Sequence record: PP526765
Direction: 5' to 3' (one strand)
From: Escherichia phage HK3
DNA: 64,000 nt
Translations under genes and position numbers: made by a program
In this document: positions 2,901 to 20,748 of the stretch, in pieces
How positions within the stretch are numbered: the stretch's first letter is position 1
How the letters are laid out: every line of letters starts with the position of its first letter
Notes under the pieces: model-generated
Databases searched by the model: none
The model's input: the letters and a program-made list of their open reading frames with translations, nothing else
Told to the model about the DNA's origin: nothing

Positions 2901-3301
2901 TAGCGAATGACCTGTGTTACCTGAATAGCTTCAGTTACTGACAAATCACCAACCGTTTCTTCTTTGACGAAGGTGAAGGTCAGTTCAACAGGCTCTTGCT
3001 CTTCTTCTTCTTGCTCAACTGGAACACCATTAAGCTCATCAAAGATTGATTGAGTTGTCCAGTCTTCTCCACCATCTGGGTAGTGGATTGCATAAAGAGG
3101 GAACTCTAAATTATACCAAGCAAAAACAGGGCAACCATCTACATCATCTCGGCATCTGTGGAGATATGTGTTTGTACCTTCAAAATGCAAATGGAGATTA
3201 CCATTCTCCTCAAAGATGAGAGCATCTTGCAGGTCTAGTTCCTCATTTTCGCTGTAACGGCTGACATCAACTTTAACGTGAATATGACTATTATTATTCA
3301 T
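2900..3301 (-). CDS. hypothetical protein (acidic)
   Basis: 133-aa ORF with EQEEEEQE stretch. Confidence 0.45.
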   Translation of the reverse strand: MNNNSHIHVKVDVSRYSENEELDLQDALIFEENGNLHLHFEGTNTYLHRCRDDVDGCPVFAWYNLEFPLYAIHYPDGGEDWTTQSIFDELNGVPVEQEEEEQEPVELTFTFVKEETVGDLSVTEAIQVTQVIR

Positions 3302-3692
3302 AAAAACCTCTCTCTGCTTGTTCGATTTTCGCTTTTAGAACTTCACACCGCTCTATGTGATATCTGGCTTCATGTTCATGTGTCGCCAAAGTTCTTTCAA
3401 GAATGGTTTTATAGTAACCTGCAAGTTGCTCTCTTGTCAATGGGTTCTCTGAAATAATATCAAGACCACTTTCACCTAGAGTATTAAACTGGCCATGTTC
3501 ATTTACATGGTAAGTCTCAAATTTGAATAAACCGTTATTAGCAGCCTCAATAGGTGAGAGTTCAACCAACTCAACAGTGAACATTGTATGCACCCTATCA
3601 CCAACTGTAACAATGTTACTTCCAATGATGCGTACAAGCGAACCATTACGAGTGTACTTAAAAGTCCCAAAGTCACTAGCCCAAAGTTTCAT
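3294..3692 (-). CDS. hypothetical protein
   Basis: 132-aa ORF. Confidence 0.45.
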   Translation of the reverse strand: MKLWASDFGTFKYTRNGSLVRIIGSNIVTVGDRVHTMFTVELVELSPIEAANNGLFKFETYHVNEHGQFNTLGESGLDIISENPLTREQLAGYYKTILERTLATHEHEARYHIERCEVLKAKIEQAERGFYE

Positions 3693-3704
3693 AGTTTTCT
3701 CCTT

Positions 3705-3733
3705 AGAAAATAAAAAAGGCTCCCGAAGGAGCC
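3705..3733 (-). terminator. rho-independent terminator downstream of endolysin gene
   Basis: minus-strand hairpin GGCTCC-TTCG-GGAGCC (3718-3733) followed by T7 run (plus-strand A run 3711-3717). Confidence 0.7.
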
Positions 3734-3743
3734 TATGAAGATA

Positions 3744-4208
3744 TTACTTTGGGTATACACTGTCAAGATAAATGTCAGCTTCCATTCTACGTCTGTTTTT
3801 CAGACCGTTTGAAGTGACCTTCTTACCTTTGACCGTAACCTTGTTCCACCACTGCATAGCTTCTGCACAACCGCCCTTATTACCAGCGTTGTGGCGCTTG
3901 ATAAATGTGGAGTCCTGCATAGCTGTGATGCCGATGTTGTATGTTTCACTTACAAGTGCATCGAACTCATTCTGAGAAGTTGGAACCTTGATAGCTTTAT
4001 TCACTGCTGCAACGAACTTCTCAACATCTGCGAGAAGATACTGTTCAGCTTGTTCAGCAGTAATTTTCATACCCATCTTAACAGGTTTTCCGTCCATACG
4101 GATTGTACCATACCCGATTGTCGGGATTCCGGCAGAATCTTCGTAAGCCTCTAACTTCAGACCTTCAAAGAACTTAATAGCTTCTAAACCTTTTCTTGAG
4201 AGTTGCAT
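3744..4208 (-). CDS. endolysin, GH24 (T4/lambda-type) lysozyme
   Basis: FEGLKLEAYEDSAGIPTIGYGT catalytic E/D/T signature typical of phage lysozymes; 154 aa. Confidence 0.85.
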   Translation of the reverse strand: MQLSRKGLEAIKFFEGLKLEAYEDSAGIPTIGYGTIRMDGKPVKMGMKITAEQAEQYLLADVEKFVAAVNKAIKVPTSQNEFDALVSETYNIGITAMQDSTFIKRHNAGNKGGCAEAMQWWNKVTVKGKKVTSNGLKNRRRMEADIYLDSVYPK

Positions 4209-4840
4209 TATTCCTCCCCTGCTGGGTTAACTGTAACTGTTGCTGCATTAGATGTCACAGAGCCACCTGCACCAGTAACTACACAGGTGTAGCTTCCTGC
4301 ATCAGCAGCAGTTGCACCTTCTTTGGTATAAGTTGCAGCAGTTGCTTCTGGGATAACTTCCTCACCCTTCTTCCACTGATAGCCTGTTGCATCAGTAGCA
4401 ACAACACTTAGTGTCAAGGTGTCACCTTCAGTGATTTCTTGATTGGTTGGCTGCTGAGTGATTGATGGTGGTTTGACAGCACCTTTCAACTTAGCATTCA
4501 GCATTGAGAATGGTTTAACTCTTGCCAGCCATTCACAGTAAATTGTGTCAACATCTTTACCATTGATGATTGCATATTGTAAGTCCATGAAGAAGTCAGA
4601 AGTTCTCATTTGAGCACCGATGCTGTAAAGCAACTCATCACTAAATGGGACTTTATAGGCTGGTTTGTAGTCAAACTTCTTAACTTCTGCAATATCAGCT
4701 TCAGGCCAATACGAACTATATGTAAGCGGTAAAATAGCCTCTTGATATGTTCTAAAATCATATCTCTTACCAGCCTTTACATTTGCAACGAAGCCCTTCA
4801 CAAACTCTTTGAAGTCTGGGTAAGTCTTTGCTTTAATCAT
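4208..4840 (-). CDS. hypothetical protein with C-terminal Ig-like domain; paralog of adjacent gene
   Basis: N-terminal 125 aa alignable to 4837..5208 product (shared FMDLQY motif); C-terminal about 80 aa resembles bacterial Ig-like domain (TLTLSVVATDATGYQWKKGEE...GSYTCVVTGAGGSVTSNAATVTV). Confidence 0.5.
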   Translation of the reverse strand: MIKAKTYPDFKEFVKGFVANVKAGKRYDFRTYQEAILPLTYSSYWPEADIAEVKKFDYKPAYKVPFSDELLYSIGAQMRTSDFFMDLQYAIINGKDVDTIYCEWLARVKPFSMLNAKLKGAVKPPSITQQPTNQEITEGDTLTLSVVATDATGYQWKKGEEVIPEATAATYTKEGATAADAGSYTCVVTGAGGSVTSNAATVTVNPAGEE

Positions 4841-5208
4841 TTCTTTTTAGCCTCTAAATGTGCGTTTAGTCTAAAATAACCTTTGTGATGCGGAGATACA
4901 TCACCAACAACAATACCCTTAACCTTATAACCTTTACCAATTACATACTGGATATCCATAAGGAATCTTCCAAGTCCAACAATATGGAACATTGGATATA
5001 ACAGTTTCTCAGAATCTGGAATATTGATTTCAGGTTTGTAGGTGCGTTGTTCGCTTGTTGGTGTAATATCTTCTTCAGGCCATTTACTGAGTCTCCATGT
5101 CAAAGGTGTTGGGATAACATCATTAAGGTTGTACCTTTCACCATTTTGCACGGAATTGATATAGGATTGTAGGAAGCAATAAAAGTCTTTTGCACTCTTA
5201 GCTTTCAT
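4837..5208 (-). CDS. hypothetical protein, paralog of 4208..4840 N-domain
   Basis: 123 aa; shares KAK..DF, FMDLQY, NAxL motifs with neighbour. Confidence 0.5.
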   Translation of the reverse strand: MKAKSAKDFYCFLQSYINSVQNGERYNLNDVIPTPLTWRLSKWPEEDITPTSEQRTYKPEINIPDSEKLLYPMFHIVGLGRFLMDIQYVIGKGYKVKGIVVGDVSPHHKGYFRLNAHLEAKKK

Positions 5209-5255
5209 TAAATATCCTTATAAATAGTTAAAGGGGCTGATGCCCCTATCCACAC

Positions 5256-5846
5256 TTAAGCTTTGGTCTTAAGTAGGTTCTTAAGTTTTTTAAGATTCAT
5301 ACTCTCATCAAACTTAAAACCAAATCCATTGACATAATCAATGAACTCGGATTTCTTACTGAGTGACAATGCGTAACTCATATCAAAGTTCTTACTTGTT
5401 TCTGCGTCTGGACTAGAGTTCACATCAAATGAAATTTCTGTCGGCTCTTGCTTACTTTTTCTAATATTATCAACCAACAAACATGTATAGTTTGCTGGAT
5501 AGAAATTTACACTACCATCAACGTAGCTGTACTTATTATTATGGATAAGGTTGGAAAAGACCTTAAGGAATGTTTCTGAGTCGTGGCAAACAAGCTTGAA
5601 TTGGCTGCTCTCTCCAAGCGCAACTAATGAGTACGGACTTTCACTATCGAAGTCATAGTTTGGATTCGATGTCGTAACTGTTACACGCATCAAGTTATTA
5701 GCAATAGTCTTCTGTTTAAAAGAATTTGGAACATAGTGAAGACCTCTATCGCACTGATTAACTAATTCTTTCAATAGGTCATTTGCATATGGTGAATTAA
5801 TTGATACAGAGCCATCACTATTATAATTAAAACTTACTGTTAACAT
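5256..5846 (-). CDS. hypothetical protein
   Basis: 196-aa ORF. Confidence 0.45.
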   Translation of the reverse strand: MLTVSFNYNSDGSVSINSPYANDLLKELVNQCDRGLHYVPNSFKQKTIANNLMRVTVTTSNPNYDFDSESPYSLVALGESSQFKLVCHDSETFLKVFSNLIHNNKYSYVDGSVNFYPANYTCLLVDNIRKSKQEPTEISFDVNSSPDAETSKNFDMSYALSLSKKSEFIDYVNGFGFKFDESMNLKKLKNLLKTKA

Positions 5847-6073
5847 TTTTCAGTTCTCCTGCGATTTATGATTTTGCTGCAATAGAGAAACGAAGTAAAC
5901 TCACTGGAAGAAACCATTAAGTGTTGTTCACTAGATTGAGCCATTGCCCTGAAATACATTCCAGTCAAAGCATCGTAGTGACTATTCTTTCCAATTGAGG
6001 TTATATAGCCATGACTCTTTGCAGTTTTATATAAATCTATAATATCTGCGATTTCTAATTGGGAACTACACAT
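5840..6073 (-). CDS. hypothetical protein
   Basis: 77-aa ORF. Confidence 0.3.
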   Translation of the reverse strand: MCSSQLEIADIIDLYKTAKSHGYITSIGKNSHYDALTGMYFRAMAQSSEQHLMVSSSEFTSFLYCSKIINRRRTEKC

Positions 6074-6237
6074 AGATAATCCTCTTGTCTTCTGTAATTT
6101 TGAAAGAACAGGTACAGACCAATTTCAGAGGATGAATAGTAGAGCAACTCTACCCTTTTTGATTCCTTACAGTGATTGGTATTTTTACCTTTCTTCGGGT
6201 TGTTTGATTTTCTCATTAAGTCTCCTTTGTAGAACAA
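6055..6237 (-). CDS. hypothetical protein
   Basis: 60-aa ORF, basic. Confidence 0.25.
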   Translation of the reverse strand: MFYKGDLMRKSNNPKKGKNTNHCKESKRVELLYYSSSEIGLYLFFQNYRRQEDYLCVVPN

Positions 6238-6315
6238 GGCAGACCTACAGCTTTAAGTAAGATGGTACAGTAATCCATACAACAAGTCAAGAACTATTGC
6301 AAGTTAAAAAAGTTG

Positions 6316-6344
6316 TTGACAAAGTACTTGACAAGGTGTAGGCT
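6316..6344 (+). promoter_or_regulatory. candidate promoter with conserved spacer motif (TTGACA-17-TAGGCT)
   Basis: TTGACA 6316-6321; 17-nt spacer AAGTACTTGACAAGGTG contains 13-mer ACTTGACAAGGTG also found at 48275 and 63533. Confidence 0.45.
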
Positions 6345-6465
6345 TATAAATACTTAGAAGATAACTTAAAAGGTTCCTCTAAAAAGGCTATTTAAACAGA
6401 TATCTTTCTGGATATCTATCTTTTATCTTAAAAGCCTTTTAAGAGGTCTTATAAGAGGCATACCA

Positions 6466-6837
6466 ATGAAAAACAGAACAAACAAAGGCCAGTTTAAAAA
6501 AGGCCAGTCTGGAAACCCATCTGGAAGACCAAAAGGCTCTCGTAACAAAAGCTCACTTGTAAAAGCTCAACTGACCATTGATAATTCTGCTGAGTTCGCT
6601 GCAAAGCTGTTTGAGGCGATTGTTACAAGGGACGCGGCTAAGCTTGCAGAGTTCGGTTTGACGACTGACGATGTAAACCTGAAGTCAATGATGGAAGCTG
6701 GTAAAACTATCATGACCCACTCAGCAGGTGAGATGAAAGCCATTGCAGCAGACACTAAGAAGACTCCTGATAATGGTGGTCAACAACAGACAGATAACAA
6801 ACCAACGTTCTCTGCTGTAGCGACTCTCAAAAAATAA
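6466..6837 (+). CDS. hypothetical protein with GNPxGRPKG motif
   Basis: 123 aa; N-terminal GNPSGRPKGSRN motif I recall from a phage/plasmid family of unknown function. Confidence 0.5.
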   Translation: MKNRTNKGQFKKGQSGNPSGRPKGSRNKSSLVKAQLTIDNSAEFAAKLFEAIVTRDAAKLAEFGLTTDDVNLKSMMEAGKTIMTHSAGEMKAIAADTKKTPDNGGQQQTDNKPTFSAVATLKK

Positions 6838-6849
6838 TTTTAAAAGGTG

Positions 6850-6879
6850 TTGACAGACTCTACAAAGTTGCTCTAAAGT
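6850..6879 (+). promoter_or_regulatory. sigma70-like promoter (TTGACA-18-TAAAGT) inside inverted repeat
   Basis: TTGACA 6850-6855, TAAAGT 6874-6879; inverted repeat GACAGACT (6852-6859) / AGTCTGTC (6877-6884). Confidence 0.5.
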
Positions 6880-6916
6880 CTGTCACATCAAACAAAATGA
6901 GAGAAGAGAGTAAAAT

Positions 6917-8332
6917 ATGAGCAAGTTATTTAAACATGCGCACCTTCATGCAGGTCGAACTGAAAATGGTGCTGTAAACCATACTTCATCAATGTCTGCT
7001 CTGGTAGACTTCTACAAAGCCGCTGGTTCAAGCCGTAGCAATGTAGAAATCTTACCAGACCTGTTCTACAAAGCTTTGCGTGAGGATGTTGATGTTGCAG
7101 TTCGTATTTTACTGCATATGCGAGATGTACGAGAAGGTATGGGCGAGCGTAAAGCTTTCCGAACTGTTTTGCTTCAAGCGATTGAAGATAAGGTTTTAGA
7201 ACCTACACAGGTTCTTCGCATTATGGATAAGATTGCAGAACTTGGTCGTTTTGATGACTTCAAAATCTTTGTAGGTACTCGTTTTGAGACAGACGCCTTC
7301 AAACATTTAGAAGCAGCATTACTAGACCCTGCAACAGCAGGTTTAGCAGCTAAGTGGTTGCCACGAGTAAAACCACGCCACAAACAGTTTGTAAAACGTT
7401 TCTGCAAGTTTGCAAACTTAAGTGAGAAGGAGTATCGCACACTGTTGTCTGCACTATCTGATACGGTTGAGCAAAAAATCTCTGCTAATGAGTTTGGTAA
7501 GATTGACTACAGCAAGATTCCTTCACTAGCTGCTGCACGTTACCAAAAACTCTTTAACCGTAAAGATGGTGAACGTTACAAAGCTTACATCGAGTCGCTC
7601 TCAAAGGGTGAGGCTAAGATTAATGCTGGTGCTGTTTACCCATACGATGTGATTAAATCTATTAAGTATGGTAATGCAGATGTTGCTAATGAGCAGTGGA
7701 AAGCACTTCCAAACTGGATGGCAGAAGGTGAAAACATCTTGTGTATGACTGATGTTTCAAGCTCAATGTCTTGGGTGAATCTTGGTTCAATCACTGCCCT
7801 TGATATTGGTGTATCACTTGCTTTGTATGTAGCAGAACGCAATACTGGTTGCTTTAAAGATGAGTTAATGGTTTACTCAACAAACCCTCACTTCATTGAA
7901 CTGAGTGGTGATTTACGAAACCGTCATCGTCAGGTGATGCGTCACGTTGAATATGGCTCAACTAACTTACAAGCAGCTTTTGACCGTATTCTTGAAATAG
8001 GTAAGAGAAACAACTTGACTCAGAAAGATATGCCAAGTAAGCTTATTATCTTCTCTGATATGGAGTTTAATCAGGTTGATGGTGCAAATGGTCATACAAA
8101 CTTTGAAGCAATTCAGAGTAAGTACAAAAAAGCCGGATACGAAATGCCACAACTAGTATTCTGGTACTTAGCAAACCGTAATGGTACTTGCGAAGTATCT
8201 GTTAAGGATAATGGTGTAGCAATGGTATCAGGGTTCTCTCCAGCCACTTTAAAAGCTCTACTTGGTGGTGAGAAGTTTGACCCAATCAGCGTAATGCTCA
8301 AAGCAGTAATGATTGACCGTTATATCTGGTAA
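6917..8332 (+). CDS. vWA-domain protein with Ro60-like architecture (alpha-helical N-domain + C-terminal vWA)
   Basis: 471 aa; MIDAS-like DVSSSMS ... GSTN ... IIFSDME in C-terminal half; helical N-terminal about 270 aa; lies immediately upstream of tRNA array. Confidence 0.6.
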   Translation: MSKLFKHAHLHAGRTENGAVNHTSSMSALVDFYKAAGSSRSNVEILPDLFYKALREDVDVAVRILLHMRDVREGMGERKAFRTVLLQAIEDKVLEPTQVLRIMDKIAELGRFDDFKIFVGTRFETDAFKHLEAALLDPATAGLAAKWLPRVKPRHKQFVKRFCKFANLSEKEYRTLLSALSDTVEQKISANEFGKIDYSKIPSLAAARYQKLFNRKDGERYKAYIESLSKGEAKINAGAVYPYDVIKSIKYGNADVANEQWKALPNWMAEGENILCMTDVSSSMSWVNLGSITALDIGVSLALYVAERNTGCFKDELMVYSTNPHFIELSGDLRNRHRQVMRHVEYGSTNLQAAFDRILEIGKRNNLTQKDMPSKLIIFSDMEFNQVDGANGHTNFEAIQSKYKKAGYEMPQLVFWYLANRNGTCEVSVKDNGVAMVSGFSPATLKALLGGEKFDPISVMLKAVMIDRYIW

Positions 8333-8497: not shown

Positions 8498-8574
8498 CTC
8501 TGTTTAGCTCAGCTTGGTAGAGCGTTCCGTTTGGGGCGGTAAGGCCGGAGGTTCAAGTCCTCCAACAGAGACCA
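8498..8574 (+). tRNA. tRNA-Pro (anticodon UGG)
   Basis: manual fold: acceptor CTCTGTT/AACAGAG, D-loop AGCTTGGTA, anticodon loop TTTGGGG, T-arm GGAGG-TTCAAGT-CCTCC, encoded CCA. Confidence 0.75.
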
Positions 8575-8581
8575 AATTAAT

Positions 8582-8659
8582 GTTCCAGTAGACAAAATGG
8601 TATAGTCACCACTCTTTCAAAGTGGATATTTGAGGGTTCAAATCCCTTCTGGAACGCCA
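8582..8659 (+). tRNA. tRNA-Glu (anticodon UUC)
   Basis: manual fold: acceptor GTTCCAG/CTGGAAC, anticodon stem CCACT/AGTGG loop CTTTCAA, T-loop TTCAAAT, CCA. Confidence 0.7.
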
Positions 8660-8666
8660 GTTTTGA

Positions 8667-8740
8667 CAGAAGACCAATTACAGCAAACTTAATCTTATTC
8701 ATCTGAAGGTAAATCGGACAAAGAAGAGATTTGGTCTGGT
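8667..8740 (+). ncRNA. inter-tRNA structured element a (conserved terminal helix)
   Basis: 5' CAGAAGACCAATTACAGCAA ... 3' TTGGTCTGG; terminal 7-bp helix AGACCAA/TTGGTCT. Confidence 0.45.
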
Positions 8741-8750
8741 CATTAAGAAT

Positions 8751-8827
8751 TGCGGGTATAGAGAAAGGGCGTCTCACATGTCTCATTAGCATGGTATCGG
8801 CAGGTTCGACTCCTGCACCCGCCTCCA
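8751..8827 (+). tRNA. tRNA-Met (anticodon CAU; 1:72 mismatch)
   Basis: manual fold: anticodon stem CATGT/GCATG loop CTCATTA, T-arm GCAGG-TTCGACT-CCTGC, acceptor TGCGGGT/ACCCGCC with U1xC72 mismatch, CCA. Confidence 0.6.
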
Positions 8828-8833
8828 AATTTA

Positions 8834-8897
8834 CAGAAGACCGTTTACAGCAATATTTATTAAATTTTTAGCGGAAAAATTGAAAGATACGGTCTGG
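8834..8897 (+). ncRNA. inter-tRNA structured element b
   Basis: 5' CAGAAGACCGTTTACAGCAA ... 3' ACGGTCTGG; helix AGACCGT/ACGGTCT (compensatory to element a); internal hairpin AATTTTT-AGCGG-AAAAATT. Confidence 0.45.
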
Positions 8898-8910
8898 TAA
8901 TACTAAACAT

Positions 8911-8987
8911 GGTTAGGAAGCACATAAGGTATGTGCGGTCGCCTGTTAAGCGAATGGCACAGGGTTCGAATCCCTGACTAACCGCCA
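8911..8987 (+). tRNA. tRNA-Asn (anticodon GUU)
   Basis: manual fold: acceptor GGTTAGG/ACTAACC, anticodon loop CTGTTAA, T-arm CAGGG-TTCGAAT-CCCTG, CCA. Confidence 0.7.
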
Positions 8988-9058
8988 AATTTAGGAGAGA
9001 AGCGATTGCTCACCGATTTGTAAGGTGCAAGTCCTTAGCCTGAATAGAATAATAAAAT

Positions 9059-9145
9059 GTGTCGTTATCCCGTAGATGGTAGCGGTGGGGACTGTAAATC
9101 CCTTGTCATTGAGACTCGGTAGGTTCGACTCCTACACGGCACACC
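9059..9145 (+). tRNA. tRNA-Tyr (anticodon GUA), long variable arm
   Basis: manual fold: acceptor GTGTCGT/ACGGCAC, anticodon stem GGGGA/TCCCT loop CTGTAAA, 15-nt variable arm, T-arm GTAGG-TTCGACT-CCTAC, CCA. Confidence 0.7.
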
Positions 9146-9207
9146 AATTTTGAGAGGGCTATTTAGCCCCTCCCTTAAAGAGTTCTTACGAGTACCCTTT
9201 AAAGGAG

Positions 9208-9281
9208 CAGAAGACCAAATACAGCAAGTTACTTAAAATTTCAAGCCAATTCAATTTTGAAAAATTTAAAACTTGGTCTGG
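9208..9281 (+). ncRNA. inter-tRNA structured element c
   Basis: 5' CAGAAGACCAAATACAGCAA ... 3' TTGGTCTGG; same terminal helix. Confidence 0.45.
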
Positions 9282-9294
9282 CTCAACAAATTTA

Positions 9295-9425
9295 CAGAAG
9301 ACCGTTTACAGCAAAACTTAAACAATCTATTTCTCGGTAAAGAAAAGGTGAAGGTTCGATTCCTTCACTCGGCAGATGTCGAGTTGGTGTAATGGTAGCA
9401 CTTAAGATGATAAACAACGGTCTGG
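9295..9425 (+). ncRNA. candidate Y-RNA-like (YrlA-like) RNA: terminal helix enclosing circularly permuted tRNA-like domain
   Basis: 5' CAGAAGACCGTTTACAGCAA ... 3' ACGGTCTGG helix; inside: T-arm GTGAAGG-TTCGATT-CCTTCAC (9348-9368), closed acceptor-like hairpin ACTCGGC-AGAT-GTCGAGT (9367-9384), D-arm GTGT-AATGGTA-GCAC (9387-9401); no anticodon arm. Confidence 0.5.
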
Positions 9426-9576
9426 TAATTATCTTTGCAGTAGCTTATGTGGCTAATTATATCGTCCCATGAGTGCCGATGAATTTCCTTAGCATGATTC
9501 TAGATTAGCTTAATAGGAAATGACTCTACAGACCCTTTAGCAAGGTCTGCGTAGGTTACTGCAAAGATAATTTAAT

Positions 9577-9652
9577 AGAAGTGTAGCAGAATGGTGATGC
9601 GGCAGACTTTTAATCTGATAGGTGATGGGTTCGAATCCCTCCACTTCTACCA
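9577..9652 (+). tRNA. tRNA-Lys (anticodon UUU)
   Basis: manual fold: acceptor AGAAGTG/CACTTCT, anticodon stem GCAGA/TCTGA loop CTTTTAA, CCA; T-stem weak (3 bp); homologous to Lys-CUU gene with compensatory changes. Confidence 0.6.
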
Positions 9653-9656
9653 ATAT

Positions 9657-9733
9657 GGTTCAGTCGCAGATAAGGTAATGCAGGGGTCTCATAAGCCCTA
9701 TGAATGTGGGTTCGATTCCCATCTGAGCCTCCA
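9657..9733 (+). tRNA. tRNA with anticodon CAU (Met or Ile-lysidine type)
   Basis: manual fold: acceptor GGTTCAG/CTGAGCC, anticodon stem GGGGT/GCCCT loop CTCATAA, T-arm GTGGG-TTCGATT-CCCAT, CCA. Confidence 0.65.
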
Positions 9734-9735
9734 AT

Positions 9736-9811
9736 GCTGTGAAAGCACATATGGATGTGCATTCGGCTGATAACCGAAAGGAAGAAGGTTCGAATCCTTC
9801 TCACAGTACCA
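9736..9811 (+). tRNA. tRNA-Ile (anticodon GAU)
   Basis: manual fold: acceptor GCTGTGA/TCACAGT, D-arm GCAC-ATATGGAT-GTGC, anticodon stem TTCGG/CCGAA loop CTGATAA, T-arm GAAGG-TTCGAAT-CCTTC, CCA. Confidence 0.8.
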
Positions 9812-9826
9812 ATTTCAATAAAGTTG

Positions 9827-9855
9827 TTGACATTGAGATGTGACCACTTTATAGT
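9827..9855 (+). promoter_or_regulatory. sigma70-like promoter (TTGACA-17-TATAGT) internal to tRNA region
   Basis: TTGACA 9827-9832, TATAGT 9850-9855. Confidence 0.6.
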
Positions 9856-10058
9856 AACCTTAGTTTTCGTTGCGTAGCGTCTATTTTGCAAATTTAAAAT
9901 AAATGCAAACGACAATGTTTTTCTGGCAGTAGCTTGATAGGCTAAACACCAGTGAGGTCTTCCAATCCCTCATCAAAGAATTTGGCGTACTAGCCCACGG
10001 TATGATTAATAAGGTGGGCATCTTTAAGGGTTTTTTAAGAGAGTCTTTAAAGATTAAT

Positions 10059-10135
10059 GCACCCTTAGTTCAACTGGACAGAACAAATGACTTCTAATCA
10101 TTAGGTTACAGGTTCGAATCCTGTAGGGTGTGCCA
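10059..10135 (+). tRNA. tRNA-Arg (anticodon UCU)
   Basis: manual fold: acceptor GCACCCT/AGGGTGT, D-arm GTTC-AACTGGACA-GAAC, anticodon stem AATGA/TCATT loop CTTCTAA, T-arm ACAGG-TTCGAAT-CCTGT, CCA. Confidence 0.8.
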
Positions 10136-10277
10136 AATAGTTAGCAGATTGCTTAGACGACCTTATCGGGTCTCCGTGTAGGGAGGTGGTCTGTATCTCA
10201 TGTTTTCCAGAACATGTAAATAATCTGAGAAGGGGCTTTACAGTGTTGAGATAATACGGTAAGCTTCGAATTATAGT

Positions 10278-10360
10278 ATGGGACGATGTTAAGACTCTAA
10301 GGCATGAGCAACGGCTTCCAACACCGTTTCAAAGGGATTCAACTCCTCCGTCCCATGCCA
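10278..10360 (+). tRNA. atypical tRNA-like gene (possible tRNA-Trp, anticodon CCA) with extra nucleotides between acceptor and D-arm
   Basis: perfect 7-bp acceptor ATGGGAC/GTCCCAT + G + CCA; anticodon-like loop TTCCAAC; D-region 8 nt longer than canonical; weak T-stem. Confidence 0.3.
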
Positions 10361-10373
10361 AAGTCTTATTAGG

Positions 10374-10461
10374 GGTAGGTAGCGGCTAATGGTAGCCAAA
10401 CTGTCTTGAAAACAGTTGCCACTGTAGAGATACGGTGAGGGTTCGACTCCTTTACTTACCG
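10374..10461 (+). tRNA. tRNA-Ser (anticodon UGA), long variable arm
   Basis: manual fold: acceptor GGTAGGT/ACTTACC, anticodon stem ACTGT/ACAGT loop CTTGAAA, about 20-nt variable arm, T-arm GAGGG-TTCGACT-CCTTT. Confidence 0.7.
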
Positions 10462-10617
10462 CCTAATAAGATTTAAAGCCAAGCTTCATTCGGATGTTGC
10501 TTTGGTATCCCTCGTGTATTGTCGTACACACTGATAAAGCACCTAGTAGGTGTCACGGAGAAGAGATAATATCAAGCTCTCCAAAGGTTCTAGTCACCGG
10601 ATTAAACAAGACTATGC

Positions 10618-10639
10618 AAAGACCTGTTTAGGTCTTTTT
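10618..10639 (+). terminator. terminator-like hairpin within tRNA region
   Basis: AAAGACC-TGTTTA-GGTCTTT followed by TTT. Confidence 0.3.
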
Positions 10640-10718
10640 AGAGGGCTTCTAAGGTTATTACAGCTTGTTGTGGAACCTTGTTGCTTAGGTTCTTAGAAGT
10701 TCTCTAAAAAGATTTAAT

Positions 10719-10795
10719 GCACCTATAGCCCAACTGGTAGAGGCAGCAGACTTAGAATCTGCTCAGTGTGAGTTCGAATCTCTCTAGGTGTACCA
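10719..10795 (+). tRNA. tRNA with anticodon UAG (Leu by code) but short variable arm
   Basis: manual fold: acceptor GCACCTA/TAGGTGT, anticodon stem GCAGA/TCTGC loop CTTAGAA, 5-nt variable loop, T-loop TTCGAAT, A73, CCA. Confidence 0.55.
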
Positions 10796-10802
10796 AATTA
10801 AT

Positions 10803-10878
10803 GCAGGTGTAGCAAAATGGTTATGCGGCTGACTCTTAATCAGTAAGACGATGGTTTCAATTCCCTCCACCTGTACCA
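10803..10878 (+). tRNA. tRNA-Lys (anticodon CUU)
   Basis: manual fold: acceptor GCAGGTG/CACCTGT, anticodon stem GCTGA/TCAGT loop CTCTTAA, CCA; paralog of Lys-UUU with compensatory stem changes. Confidence 0.6.
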
Positions 10879-10884
10879 GACATT

Positions 10885-10960
10885 GGGGATGTAGTTTACA
10901 TGGTTAAAACATAAGTTTTGCAAACTTAAGTACAGGGTTCAATTCCCTGCTTCTCCACCA
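10885..10960 (+). tRNA. tRNA-Ala (anticodon UGC)
   Basis: manual fold: acceptor GGGGATG/CTTCTCC with G3-U70 wobble (Ala identity), D-arm GTTT-ACATGGTTA-AAAC, anticodon stem TAAGT/ACTTA loop TTTGCAA, T-arm CAGGG-TTCAATT-CCCTG, CCA. Confidence 0.7.
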
Positions 10961-10966
10961 ATTAGT

Positions 10967-11041
10967 GCATCCATAGTTTAAACGGGAAAATTACAGTCTT
11001 CCAAACTGAGGTTGAGGGTTCGATTCCCTCTGGATGCTCCA
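10967..11041 (+). tRNA. tRNA-Gly (anticodon UCC)
   Basis: manual fold: acceptor GCATCCA/TGGATGC, anticodon loop CTTCCAA, T-arm GAGGG-TTCGATT-CCCTC, CCA. Confidence 0.7.
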
Positions 11042-11047
11042 AATAAT

Positions 11048-11124
11048 GCTGCTTTCGTATAATTGGCTATTACACATCCCTTGTAAGGATGGAAATGCAG
11101 GTTCGAGTCCTGTGAGCAGCACCA
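11048..11124 (+). tRNA. tRNA-Thr (anticodon UGU)
   Basis: manual fold: acceptor GCTGCTT/GAGCAGC, anticodon stem CATCC/GGATG loop CTTGTAA, T-arm GCAGG-TTCGAGT-CCTGT, CCA. Confidence 0.75.
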
Positions 11125-11219
11125 ATTCAGAGGTCAAGTGAAAGACCGCTGGTGTCAACTGAAGACCGTAACAAATTCCACGGAGTTGAGTTAGCGGCAC
11201 AACTTCAGACCTCTTTCAT

Positions 11220-11294
11220 ACTCGCTTAGTTTATATGGTAAAACACCACCCTTACAAGATGAAGAAAAAGGTTCAAGTCCTTTAGTGAGTACCA
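11220..11294 (+). tRNA. tRNA-like gene, possible tRNA-Val (anticodon UAC); weak anticodon stem
   Basis: acceptor ACTCGCT/AGTGAGT, D-arm GTTT-ATATGGTA-AAAC, T-arm AAAGG-TTCAAGT-CCTTT, CCA; anticodon stem only 3/5 paired. Confidence 0.4.
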
Positions 11295-11295
11295 T

Positions 11296-11373
11296 GTTCC
11301 AATATCCCAATTGGCAGAGGATGCAAGCTCAAACCTTGTACTAGTGACGGTTCGAATCCGTCTTGGAACACCA
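11296..11373 (+). tRNA. tRNA with anticodon CAA (Leu by code) but short variable arm
   Basis: manual fold: acceptor GTTCCAA/TTGGAAC, Leu-like D-loop AATTGGCAGAG, anticodon stem GCAAG/CTTGT loop CTCAAAC, 6-nt variable loop, T-arm GACGG-TTCGAAT-CCGTC, A73, CCA. Confidence 0.55.
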
Positions 11374-11487
11374 ATTTTGGGAGAGCACTATGAGTGATAA
11401 GTCAATAGCAAAAAAGTTTAGAGCGTCATACCTAAACAGACGTAAAAACAAAGATTGTGAAAAACTGTATGGTGTTCTTGTAGGTAA

Positions 11488-11563
11488 GCAGGATTAGTTC
11501 AAATGGATAGAGCAGCAGTCTACGAAGCTGTTAATAGGGGTTCGAATCCCTTATCCTGCGCCA
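11488..11563 (+). tRNA. tRNA-Arg (anticodon ACG)
   Basis: manual fold: acceptor GCAGGAT/ATCCTGC, D-arm GTTC-AAATGGATA-GAGC, anticodon stem GCAGT/GCTGT loop CTACGAA, T-arm AGGGG-TTCGAAT-CCCTT, CCA. Confidence 0.75.
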
Positions 11564-11582
11564 ATTTTAAGAGGCTATTTAG

Positions 11583-12140
11583 ATGAGATATTTGAAGTAT
11601 GCTTCATGGATTTTCCTAGCTTTGTTAGACCCATTGGCAGCAACCTTAGCAGTTATCTTAGCACCTTTTGTAGTTCCATTCTACAGTGAGAAGAAAGGGC
11701 ACTTACCTTTCGGCTTCAGATGGATGGAGACATATGACAACCCAATTGATGGTGATAAAGGTCATGTTGAACGATGGGCTAAGATTAGAAAGATTGGTAA
11801 GCTTGGTGTCTATATGCAGAGAGTCGGTTGGCTCTGGAGAAACAAAGCTTATAACTTCTCTTACCATGTGTTAGGAAGAGATGTAAAAGATGTTACTAAG
11901 TGGAAAGGTAATATCAACGTAAGCTCTGACCCTGAAGATAATCAGACAGGTTATCTCCTAATGTGGAACAGTAATGCTTGGGGATTATTCGCTTTTATCC
12001 CATCAATTAAAGTCTTTGGTAAACAATTCTACTGGAGAATTTATATTGGGTGGAAACTAAAAAGTGTTGTCCCAGAAGAAAGAGCATTCTCAAGGGAAAG
12101 AGTTATGTTGGCATTCTTTATTCATCCACTGAGAAAGTAA
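11583..12140 (+). CDS. hypothetical membrane-anchored protein embedded in tRNA array
   Basis: 185 aa, ATG with AAGAGG upstream; N-terminal hydrophobic segment ASWIFLALLDPLAATLAVILAPFVVPF. Confidence 0.5.
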   Translation: MRYLKYASWIFLALLDPLAATLAVILAPFVVPFYSEKKGHLPFGFRWMETYDNPIDGDKGHVERWAKIRKIGKLGVYMQRVGWLWRNKAYNFSYHVLGRDVKDVTKWKGNINVSSDPEDNQTGYLLMWNSNAWGLFAFIPSIKVFGKQFYWRIYIGWKLKSVVPEERAFSRERVMLAFFIHPLRK

Positions 12141-12148
12141 AGATTTAA

Positions 12149-12224
12149 AGGGGATTAGTTTACAAGGTTAAAACCTCGGTCTTTGAAATCGAAGAAGTTG
12201 GTTCAATTCCAACATCCCCCGCCA
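12149..12224 (+). tRNA. tRNA-Gln (anticodon UUG)
   Basis: manual fold: acceptor AGGGGAT/ATCCCCC (A1xC72), D-arm GTTT-ACAAGGTTA-AAAC, anticodon stem TCGGT/ATCGA loop CTTTGAA, T-arm GTTGG-TTCAATT-CCAAC, CCA. Confidence 0.65.
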
Positions 12225-12226
12225 AT

Positions 12227-12305
12227 GCTCCATTACTCCAATTGGCAGAGAGGCCAGACTTAAAATCTGTGTTATGTATCGGTTCGAATCCGATATGGAG
12301 TACCA
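12227..12305 (+). tRNA. tRNA with anticodon UAA (Leu by code) but short variable arm
   Basis: manual fold: acceptor GCTCCAT/ATGGAGT, Leu-like D-loop AATTGGCAGAG, anticodon loop CTTAAAA, 7-nt variable loop, T-arm ATCGG-TTCGAAT-CCGAT, A73, CCA. Confidence 0.55.
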
Positions 12306-12310
12306 AATTT

Positions 12311-12386
12311 AGCGGTATAGCATAACTGGCAATGCAACAGTCTCTGAAGCTGTCTTATTAAGGTTCAAATCCTTATGCCGCTGCCA
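12311..12386 (+). tRNA. tRNA-Gln (anticodon CUG)
   Basis: manual fold: acceptor AGCGGTA/TGCCGCT, D-arm GCAT-AACTGGCA-ATGC, anticodon stem ACAGT/GCTGT loop CTCTGAA, T-arm TAAGG-TTCAAAT-CCTTA, CCA. Confidence 0.7.
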
Positions 12387-12417
12387 CTTCTAAGGATTCT
12401 TACGAGAGTCCTTAAAT

Positions 12418-12493
12418 GTGGCCTTATCATAAACGGTAATGACCCATGCTGTGAACATGGTCTATACGGGTTCAAATCCCGTAGGTCACCCCA
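12418..12493 (+). tRNA. tRNA-His (anticodon GUG)
   Basis: manual fold: acceptor GTGGCCT/AGGTCAC, D-arm TCAT-AAACGGTA-ATGA, anticodon stem CCATG/CATGG loop CTGTGAA, T-arm ACGGG-TTCAAAT-CCCGT, C73, CCA. Confidence 0.75.
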
Positions 12494-12498
12494 ATTTA

Positions 12499-12575
12499 TA
12501 GTCCAAGTAGCTTATATGGTTAAAGCGCGTGTCTGAAAAACATGAGAAGAGGGTTCAAATCCCACTGGATTACCA
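12499..12575 (+). tRNA. tRNA-Phe (anticodon GAA); acceptor/D junction atypical
   Basis: D-arm GCTT-ATATGGTTA-AAGC, anticodon stem CGTGT/ACATG loop CTGAAAA, T-loop TTCAAAT; acceptor TAGTCCA/TGGATTA leaves 4 nt before D-stem. Confidence 0.5.
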
Positions 12576-19641: not shown

Positions 19642-20748
19642 ATGTTGACTAATTCTGAAAAAAGCAGATTTTTCCTTGCTGACCTGACTGGTGAAGTCCA
19701 GTCTATCCCAAATACTTATGGGTATATTTCCAACTTAGGTCTGTTCCGTTCAGCACCAATCACCCAAACTACTTTCCTTATGGACTTGACTGATTGGGAT
19801 GTTAGCTTGCTTGATGCGGTAGACCGTGATAGCCGTAAAGCAGAGACTAGCGCACCTGAGCGTGTTCGTCAAATCAGCTTCCCAATGATGTACTTCAAAG
19901 AAGTTGAAAGCATTACTCCTGATGAGATTCAGGGTGTACGTCAGCCGGGTACTGCAAACGAACTGACTACTGAAGCTGTAGTACGTGCTAAGAAGCTGAT
20001 GAAGATTCGTACCAAGTTCGATATTACTCGTGAGTTCCTGTTTATGCAAGCTCTGAAGGGTAAAGTTGTTGATGCTCGTGGTACTCTGTACGCTGACCTG
20101 TACAAGCAGTTCGACGTTGAGAAGAAGACTGTTTACTTCGACCTTGCCAACCCTAATGCTGACATCGACGCTTCTATCGAAGAACTGCGTATGCACATGG
20201 AAGACGAAGCTAAGACTGGCACTGTAATCAACGGCGAAGAAATTCACGTAGTTGTTGACCGTGTATTCTTCAGCAAACTGGTTAAGCATCCTAAGATTCG
20301 TGACGCTTATCTTGCACAGCAGACTCCGCTGGCTTGGCAACAGATTACTGGTTCTCTGAGAACTGGTGGTACTGACGGCGTTCAGGCTCATATGAACACC
20401 TTCTACTACGGTGGTGTTAAGTTTGTCCAGTACAACGGTAAGTTCAAAGACAAGCGTGGTAAGGTTCACACTCTGGTGGGCATTGATGATGTAGCAGCAA
20501 CTGTTGGTGTTGGTCATGCCTTCCCTAACGTATCTATGCTGGGTGAAGCTAACAACATCTTCGAAGTGGCATATGGCCCATGTCCTAAGATGGGTTATGC
20601 AAATACACTTGGTCAGGAACTGTACGTATTTGAATACGAAAAAGACCGTGACGAAGGTATTGACTTCGAAGCTCACTCTTACATGCTGCCATACTGCACT
20701 CGTCCTCAGTTGCTAGTAGATGTTCGCGCTGACGCTCAAGGTGGCTGA
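19642..20748 (+). CDS. major capsid protein
   Basis: 368 aa; position after protease/scaffold and decoration gene; codon usage sharply shifted to CTG/CGT/AAC/TTC/GGT as in highly expressed structural genes. Confidence 0.75.
   Translation: MLTNSEKSRFFLADLTGEVQSIPNTYGYISNLGLFRSAPITQTTFLMDLTDWDVSLLDAVDRDSRKAETSAPERVRQISFPMMYFKEVESITPDEIQGVRQPGTANELTTEAVVRAKKLMKIRTKFDITREFLFMQALKGKVVDARGTLYADLYKQFDVEKKTVYFDLANPNADIDASIEELRMHMEDEAKTGTVINGEEIHVVVDRVFFSKLVKHPKIRDAYLAQQTPLAWQQITGSLRTGGTDGVQAHMNTFYYGGVKFVQYNGKFKDKRGKVHTLVGIDDVAATVGVGHAFPNVSMLGEANNIFEVAYGPCPKMGYANTLGQELYVFEYEKDRDEGIDFEAHSYMLPYCTRPQLLVDVRADAQGG

Follow-up and report, generated by a model that had tools for sequence, protein, structure and literature searches.

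The closest described relatives of the two genes treated here are capsid decoration proteins of two phages, Hex-Dec of Bas63 and gp20 of Sf14, each of which was placed by cryo-electron microscopy (cryo-EM) as a monomer at the centres of capsid hexamers (PMC12609058, PMC11821841). Their capsid-binding domain (CapBD) has two lobes related by pseudo-two-fold symmetry; in the T=9 shell it occupies the 60 edge (pentamer-proximal) hexamers alone and leaves the 20 hexamers on true 3-fold axes empty, and flexible immunoglobulin (Ig)-like domains project outward from it (PMC12609058, PMC11821841). Sf14 gp20 contacts the major capsid protein through Arg79 and Arg107, which are salt-bridged to Asp221 of the latter (PMC11821841). 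The gene lies outside the structural module and is usually misannotated as a tail protein, its relatives carry one to four Ig domains, and adhesion or aggregation roles similar to those of T4 Hoc have been proposed in both structure papers (PMC12609058, PMC11821841). We analysed a 64,000-nucleotide (nt) stretch of Escherichia phage HK3 (sequence record PP526765; hereafter the window), in which a gene of this type is overlapped by a shorter, related gene that consists of little else than the CapBD.

Two better-known decoration proteins offer further comparison. T4 Hoc, like Hex-Dec, is a monomer at hexamer centres that extends a string of acidic Ig-like domains outward, and it is non-essential; its domain order is reversed, however, with the capsid-binding domain at the C terminus, and the Hex-Dec CapBD is larger, of different topology and pseudo-two-fold (PMC12609058). 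T5 pb10 (gene N5; PDB 5LXK, 8ZVI), described as decorating all 120 hexamers of a T=13 capsid, has an Ig domain homologous to that of the long gene in the window (8zvi_a, E=1.7e-10), but its N-terminal domain has no detectable similarity, the match being limited to residues 131-207. This Ig homology explains the 'N5 decoration protein' label in the GenBank record of phage EF202P1. Matches of the long protein to Hoc-like PHROG families (phrog_4069, phrog_2973) likewise cover only the Ig region, residues 125-207, and do not extend to a Hoc-family capsid-binding domain.

The window belongs to a Felix O1-like myovirus of the genus Felixounavirus (Ounavirinae): positions 3000-7000 show 94-95% nt identity to many Felixounavirus genomes (among them Salmonella phage RPN213 and Escherichia phages L27 and Alf5), and at least 80% of this region is covered by 237 records. 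The overall explanation of the locus is very probably a tandemly duplicated pair of capsid-decoration genes, with the following parts (aa, amino acids; dN/dS, ratio of nonsynonymous to synonymous substitution rates).

4208..4840, minus strand: Hex-Dec gene, 210 aa; ortholog of Bas63 Hex-Dec (bas63_0124) and Sf14 gp20, in the same gene position; phrog_3995 at E=1e-116
4481..4840, minus strand: CapBD of Hex-Dec, aa 1-120, from alignment to 9ncf_S and 9c2d_S; dN/dS 0.045
4211..4480, minus strand: single Ig-like (I-set/Ig_3) display domain, aa 121-210; Pfam Ig_3, Ig_2 and I-set above cut-off
4837..5208, minus strand: CapBD-only paralog, 123 aa, phrog_4463 (unknown function); equivalent to Felix O1 gp37, Sf14 gp21 and bas63_0125
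4837..4840, minus strand: ATGA overlap between the paralog stop and the Hex-Dec start, read from the sequence

The long gene is, with little room for doubt, Hex-Dec, a monomeric Hoc-like decoration protein that should work as published, because it is orthologous to proteins of solved structure. Searching the PDB with its translation (phmmer) returned 9ncf_S, the Bas63 'immunoglobulin-like domain protein' (E=3.3e-212), and 9c2d_S, the Sf14 'putative tail protein' (E=6.7e-149), to both of which residues 1-207 align almost gap-free. The CapBD is about 93-95% identical to those of Bas63 Hex-Dec and Sf14 gp20, and Arg79 and Arg107 are both present, at positions 79 and 107 of the translated open reading frame (ORF). 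The window protein also shares with these two the Ig type and the position of its gene between a 123-aa gene and the endolysin gene, and differs from them in having one Ig domain, a chimera of first and last repeats, rather than four (Bas63) or three (Sf14). The capsid partner is present as well: 19642..20748(+) encodes a major capsid protein orthologous to those of Bas63 and Sf14 (9ncf_A, E=1.5e-246). Mass spectrometry of Felix O1 virions detected the Hex-Dec ortholog, gp36, at 44% coverage (PMC3185647).

From this orthology we infer that the T=9 capsid of the window phage would hold 60 Hex-Dec monomers, one per edge hexamer. Each monomer would insert its pseudo-two-fold CapBD, of about 118 aa, into the acidic hexamer centre, with Arg79 and Arg107 as anchors, and would then project a flexible, acidic Ig domain outward; a Hoc-like role of that domain in adhesion or aggregation is proposed by analogy with the literature. 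An Ig-bearing decoration protein of this kind is already known, from the two cryo-EM papers of 2025, and the new element at this locus is modest: a conserved, late-expressed duplicate of the capsid-anchoring domain alone, directly upstream of the decoration gene and overlapping it.

Labels on the Hex-Dec gene across GenBank and RefSeq (our matches H2, H3, H47 and H48; phrog_3995) read 'tail protein', 'major tail protein' or 'HK97 major tail subunit', and the short paralog is sometimes also called 'tail protein' (RefSeq, UniRef). We rejected a tail identity: matches to PHROG 'major tail protein' families are confined to the Ig region, residues 117-209, and the solved structures place the protein on the capsid. 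The tail labels on both genes derive from Ig-domain similarity and are wrong by the evidence of the solved capsid structures, and correcting this widespread label is the practical value of the identification for the Hex-Dec gene.

Over 26 related loci the length of Hex-Dec falls into four classes, 210-211 aa (4 loci), 294-298 aa (11), 377 aa (9) and 461 aa (2), which correspond to one, two, three and four Ig domains. The single Ig domain of the window is a chimera of first and last repeats: its first codons, at the junction with the CapBD, match Ig1, and its 3' half has 0.91-0.95 nt identity to the last Ig of a four-Ig relative. In other one-Ig variants (loci L006 and L025) the change from Ig1-like to last-Ig-like sequence comes at other positions, and the Ig array has therefore contracted by unequal recombination between repeats more than once. 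The locus thus illustrates how recurrent unequal recombination changes the Ig copy number on phage heads. The dN/dS of Ig1 is 0.11.

That the two genes are related had been claimed in the original prediction, made from the sequence alone, which described adjacent paralogs beside the endolysin gene with a shared N-terminal domain of about 120 aa, the downstream copy adding an Ig-like domain. These points were borne out. The two adjacent ORFs, 4837..5208(-) of 123 aa and 4208..4840(-) of 210 aa, align by BLASTP over residues 1-123 of both with 42/125 identities (34%), 52% positives and E=8e-16; the motifs KAK..DF, RY, WPE.DI and F.MD.QY are found in them; and each protein matches the PHROG family of the other (phrog_3995 and phrog_4463) at E ~1e-15. 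Profile search placed the Ig-like domain at residues 124-204 of the long protein (Ig_3, 40.3 bits against a cut-off of 30; Ig_2, 37.4 against 27; I-set, 31.8 against 23.7). The endolysin gene does adjoin the pair, at 3744..4208(-) immediately downstream, an adjacency that is one of gene order and operon structure and not of lysis function. The further suggestion of one surface protein made in two isoforms fared less well: these are separate paralogous genes, 34% identical and each in its own clan at 100% bootstrap, not two products of one gene. Surface binding at the virion stands for the Ig-bearing gene, whose cryo-EM-solved orthologs sit on capsid hexamers; the short one is absent from the Felix O1 virion list, and neither cryo-EM paper mentions it.

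We regard it as shown, or nearly so, that the short gene is a functional, late-expressed, CapBD-only paralog from a single old duplication. The same phmmer search of the PDB with the short protein, which has no PDB entry of its own, matched only the CapBD of 9ncf_S and 9c2d_S (E=3e-11, residues 2-117). An AlphaFold2 (AF2) model built on a diverse alignment reached a predicted local distance difference test score (pLDDT) of 76 and a predicted template-modelling score (pTM) of 0.77, and Foldseek against the PDB matched this model only to 9c2d_S (template-modelling score, TM, 0.73/0.75) and 9ncf_S (TM 0.71), the next match being at E=1; the alignment included Hex-Dec sequences, and the fold match is thus not fully independent of sequence homology. 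This run superseded an earlier one on a shallow, nearly all-paralog alignment, which gave pLDDT 60 and only noise in Foldseek. By the model, the short gene product is a complete CapBD with a basic tail of five residues and nothing else. No Ig-like repeats were found in it by Pfam, the protein ending five residues after the CapBD, and all of its homologs are 122-124 aa long. It has in common with Bas63 Hex-Dec and Sf14 gp20 the CapBD fold alone: it lacks the Ig domains and Arg79, has His at the position of Arg107, and is in neither published model. We know of no CapBD-only paralog in T4.

Selection has maintained the short gene: its median pairwise dN/dS is 0.12 at dS ~0.7 (364 pairs), which indicates purifying selection (for comparison, 0.045 for the Hex-Dec CapBD and 0.07 for the endolysin), and in 27 loci its length never departs from 122-124 aa. 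Its protein evolves faster than the CapBD of its partner (dN 0.077 vs. 0.023). The gene occurs in 232 of the 252 matching phage records (Felixounavirus, Mooglevirus and Suspvirus), and every record with the short gene among the matches listed also has a second match, Hex-Dec.

The stop codon of the paralog and the start codon of Hex-Dec overlap as ATGA in 25 of 27 related loci, the other two, from Suspvirus, overlapping by 8 nt. An ATGA stop/start overlap is an arrangement typical of translational coupling. The Hex-Dec stop in turn overlaps the endolysin ATG (as TAATG), an overlap found in most of the 27 loci, so that the paralog, Hex-Dec and endolysin genes, in this order, would form a three-gene unit. 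In Felix O1, reverse-transcription PCR found the transcripts of ORF36 (Hex-Dec) and ORF37 (the paralog) both maximal at 60 min, together with those of portal, sheath, tube and fibre genes, and those of ORF35 (lysin) and ORF38 maximal at 25 min (PMC3185647).

The CapBD family is tiny: an exhaustive hidden Markov model (HMM) search of 1.84 billion representative proteins returned 11 proteins, and the family appears confined to Ounavirinae-like phages. A word-indexed protein search with the CapBD profile did not return the Hex-Dec proteins, leaving the HMM search as the informative one. A single CapBD gene is present in Kolesnikvirus (Erwinia) and Hafnia phages and in several uncultured relatives, in the order 196-aa-like gene, CapBD gene, lysozyme gene. 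These single-copy proteins share with the window pair the CapBD family and the position upstream of a lysozyme gene; unlike the pair they are encoded by one gene and carry Big_2, another Ig-like domain or a Lys-rich tail in place of the I-set Ig. Other C-terminal modules are thus found on the distant CapBD proteins (P0057-P0062; loci L034-L039): Kolesnikvirus-like phages have Big_2, and P0060 ends in a Lys-rich tail that is probably disordered. The CapBD accordingly acts as a portable anchor to the capsid.

The tandem pair itself reaches beyond the cultured genera, since a divergent 87-kb metagenomic phage carries it (P0055/P0056), with a short copy 45% identical to that of the window. In a neighbour-joining tree the short copies formed one clan and the long partners another, each in 200/200 bootstraps and with the P0055/P0056 pair included, a pattern that suggests a single old tandem duplication after which both copies were retained. 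Placement of the single-copy lineages relative to this duplication had 30% support.

For the role of the paralog, our preference, tentative and held at somewhat less than even confidence, is for a protein that continues to recognise the centres of capsid hexamers, if only transiently or at low occupancy, or that modulates the loading of Hex-Dec. An action at hexamers or on Hex-Dec loading is favoured because the paralog is always found with Hex-Dec (in the matches listed), overlaps it, is co-expressed with it and keeps both the fold and the invariant polar residues. The polar residues in question, invariant across the family, are D85, Q87, K109 and N115, and the protein is basic (isoelectric point 9.3), which would suit an Asp-lined hexamer centre. 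The paralog might bind, for instance, to immature or skewed hexamers, or alternatively might set how much Hex-Dec is loaded, or where.

A number of observations weigh against residence of the paralog in the virion. Felix O1 gp37 is absent from the 17-20 virion proteins detected (PMC3185647), a list that was cut at 25% coverage, absence from mass-spectrometry lists being negative evidence. For phage VpaE1, 22 virion proteins were reported that differ from the Felix O1 list only by gp54, gp58 and gp68, and ORF40c stays 'hypothetical'; by inference the paralog is not among them. (No felixounavirus transcriptomes or virion proteomes beyond those of Felix O1 and VpaE1 were found in literature searches.) Both Sf14 (gp21) and Bas63 (bas63_0125, 85% identical to the short protein of the window) encode an intact paralog, and their capsid maps contain Dec and Hex-Dec only, with no density at the true-3-fold hexamers and no mention of the paralog (PMC12609058, PMC11821841). 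The short protein is probably not in the virion, at least not stoichiometrically.

The preferred reading itself is weakened by the capsid-contact residues of the short protein. The position of Arg79 is Gly in every short copy; that of Arg107 is His in the window and Gln in most others (His or Gln in the cultured genera), with Arg only in the divergent P0055; and the family-wide KPF/KPY motif is KGY in the short copies. Because neither these arginines nor this motif are conserved, the short protein may have lost capsid binding altogether. Furthermore, about 19 natural Felixounavirus isolates have no intact paralog, including mio from Denmark (locus L004, 2307..2497) and Z31 from China (locus L005), which share the same internal deletion of about 227 bp that removes the start codon and keeps the 3' end and the ATGA junction. 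Like T4 Hoc, the paralog can thus be dispensed with. Z31 additionally has its Hex-Dec gene broken into two ORFs. The partial dependence of the fold match on homology, noted above, adds to these reservations.

Nearly as likely as a residual action at hexamers, although unlikely when taken by itself, is neofunctionalisation without capsid binding, towards a host-directed or anti-defence role or towards chaperoning Hex-Dec or holding it in solution. Such a change would agree with the loss of Arg79 from all copies and of Arg107 from most, with the faster protein evolution relative to the CapBD (the dN values given above), and with a protein that is listed in no virion proteome and is dispensable in nature. 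It agrees less with a gene that is never without Hex-Dec among the matches listed and that overlaps it, or with transcription at the late stage of the head and tail genes, host-takeover genes usually acting early; D85, Q87, K109 and N115 are also retained, and searches of Pfam, NCBIfam and PADLOC with the short protein found nothing. A paper on Gifsy-prophage resistance to Felix O1 contains no link to these genes.

Further down in likelihood we place the idea that the paralog is an unseen second ligand of hexamer centres, which either fills the 20 flat facet-centre hexamers rejected by Hex-Dec or, recognising skewed hexamers of the unexpanded prohead through its pseudo-two-fold CapBD, plugs them during assembly until it is displaced or replaced by Hex-Dec on maturation. 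Either version would imply a pair of duplicated proteins that together sense hexamer conformations, be these quasi-equivalent or maturation-dependent. Its more specific form strikes us as improbable: here the paralog would be a second decoration protein, without Ig, on the 20 true 3-fold (facet-centre) hexamers to which Hex-Dec cannot attach, and the two paralogs would share out the quasi-equivalent hexamers. The full CapBD fold (AF2/Foldseek), the late co-expression and the basic charge are all consistent with it, as is the difference from Hex-Dec at Arg79 (and in most copies also at Arg107), the residue held by the Sf14 authors to select edge over 3-fold hexamers (PMC11821841); a monomer on a 3-fold axis would, moreover, be blurred by icosahedral averaging. 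Nonetheless neither the Bas63 map (3.1 Å) nor that of Sf14 is reported to have density at the 3-fold hexamers though both phages encode the paralog, the protein is absent from the Felix O1 virion proteome and by inference from that of VpaE1, in which 20 copies of a Lys/Arg-rich 14-kDa protein would be expected to be detected normally, and lineages that lack it are viable.

Very improbable is decay, in which the short ORF would be a functionless duplicate kept only for the translation signals of Hex-Dec: the roughly 19 phages with an internal deletion do keep the 3' end and the ATGA junction, as this would require, but purifying selection (dN/dS 0.12 at dS ~0.7), the fixed length of 122-124 aa in 27 loci and retention in a lineage where the short copy is only 45% identical speak against it.

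The AAA AAG pair at 4843..4848 (minus strand), three codons before the paralog stop, is a shift-prone pair in Escherichia coli (dnaX), and the junction GCT AAA AAG AAA TGA puts the Hex-Dec ATG in the -1 frame with no stop between, such that a -1 slip would yield isoforms, the larger a fusion product (about 37 kDa) carrying both CapBDs and the Ig domain. We find this hardly credible, and as a conserved feature programmed frameshifting was rejected, in that the motif and frame offset are not kept outside Felixounavirus (Mooglevirus and Suspvirus have GCT AAG AAA TGA, AAT AAA TGA or an 8-nt overlap with another frame offset), the base before the motif is T and not A, no stimulatory structure was found downstream, Hex-Dec is served by a GAGG ribosome-binding site of its own, and gp36 is listed in the Felix O1 mass spectrometry with a mass of 31.6 kDa, the size of gp36 alone (PMC3185647).

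The interest of the paralog depends on which of these holds. If it binds capsids, the pair would be natural paralogs that discriminate between quasi-equivalent or maturation-state hexamers, and the short protein, like engineered T5 pb10, would offer a ready-made minimal anchor (14 kDa) for T=9 capsid display. Should it not bind them, a structural domain has been recruited to a non-structural role.

The remaining parts of the transcription unit and its borders are as follows (GH24, glycoside hydrolase family 24).

3744..4208, minus strand: endolysin (GH24 phage lysozyme), last gene of the unit; Pfam Phage_lysozyme PF00959 at E=6e-41
5230..5246, minus strand: GC hairpin and short T run between the 196-aa gene and the paralog; a terminator in the Felix O1 table (PMC3185647)
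3707..3734, minus strand: terminator-like hairpin and T run directly after the endolysin, at the downstream edge of the unit; 7-bp stem with 5 GC pairs, then TTTTTTATTTT

The hairpin at 5230..5246(-) has the form GGGGC-loop-GCCCC followed by TTT, with the stem kept and the loops varying over the 27 loci; with so short a T run, it may be a leaky terminator or an element of an RNA 5' end. Folding of the 63-nt stretch gave an unremarkable z-score (-1.1). A shared late promoter was sought by way of TATTTATAAG, which lies upstream of the paralog, and showed no enrichment (7 matches vs. 8.5 expected); a sigma-70 scan likewise gave background level.

A 196-aa gene, 5256..5846(-), of phrog_4034 (unknown function) adjoins the CapBD gene or genes on the upstream side in all Ounavirinae-like phages examined, single-copy lineages included. 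A T4-like inh-hoc neighbourhood was considered on the strength of a faint precomputed Phage_Inh_N match on a distant ortholog of this gene and was dropped when hmmscan of four orthologs did not reproduce it. About 15 kb separate the CapBD locus as a whole from the head and tail genes; it is on the opposite strand to the head genes, on the far side of a block of 23 tRNA genes. Between them, at 6466..8332(+) and 8498..12575(+), are divergently transcribed DUF5681 (123 aa) and DUF2828/TROVE-like vWA (471 aa) genes and then the 23-tRNA block, an arrangement of DUF5681, DUF2828 and tRNA genes that is kept even in distant metagenomic relatives.

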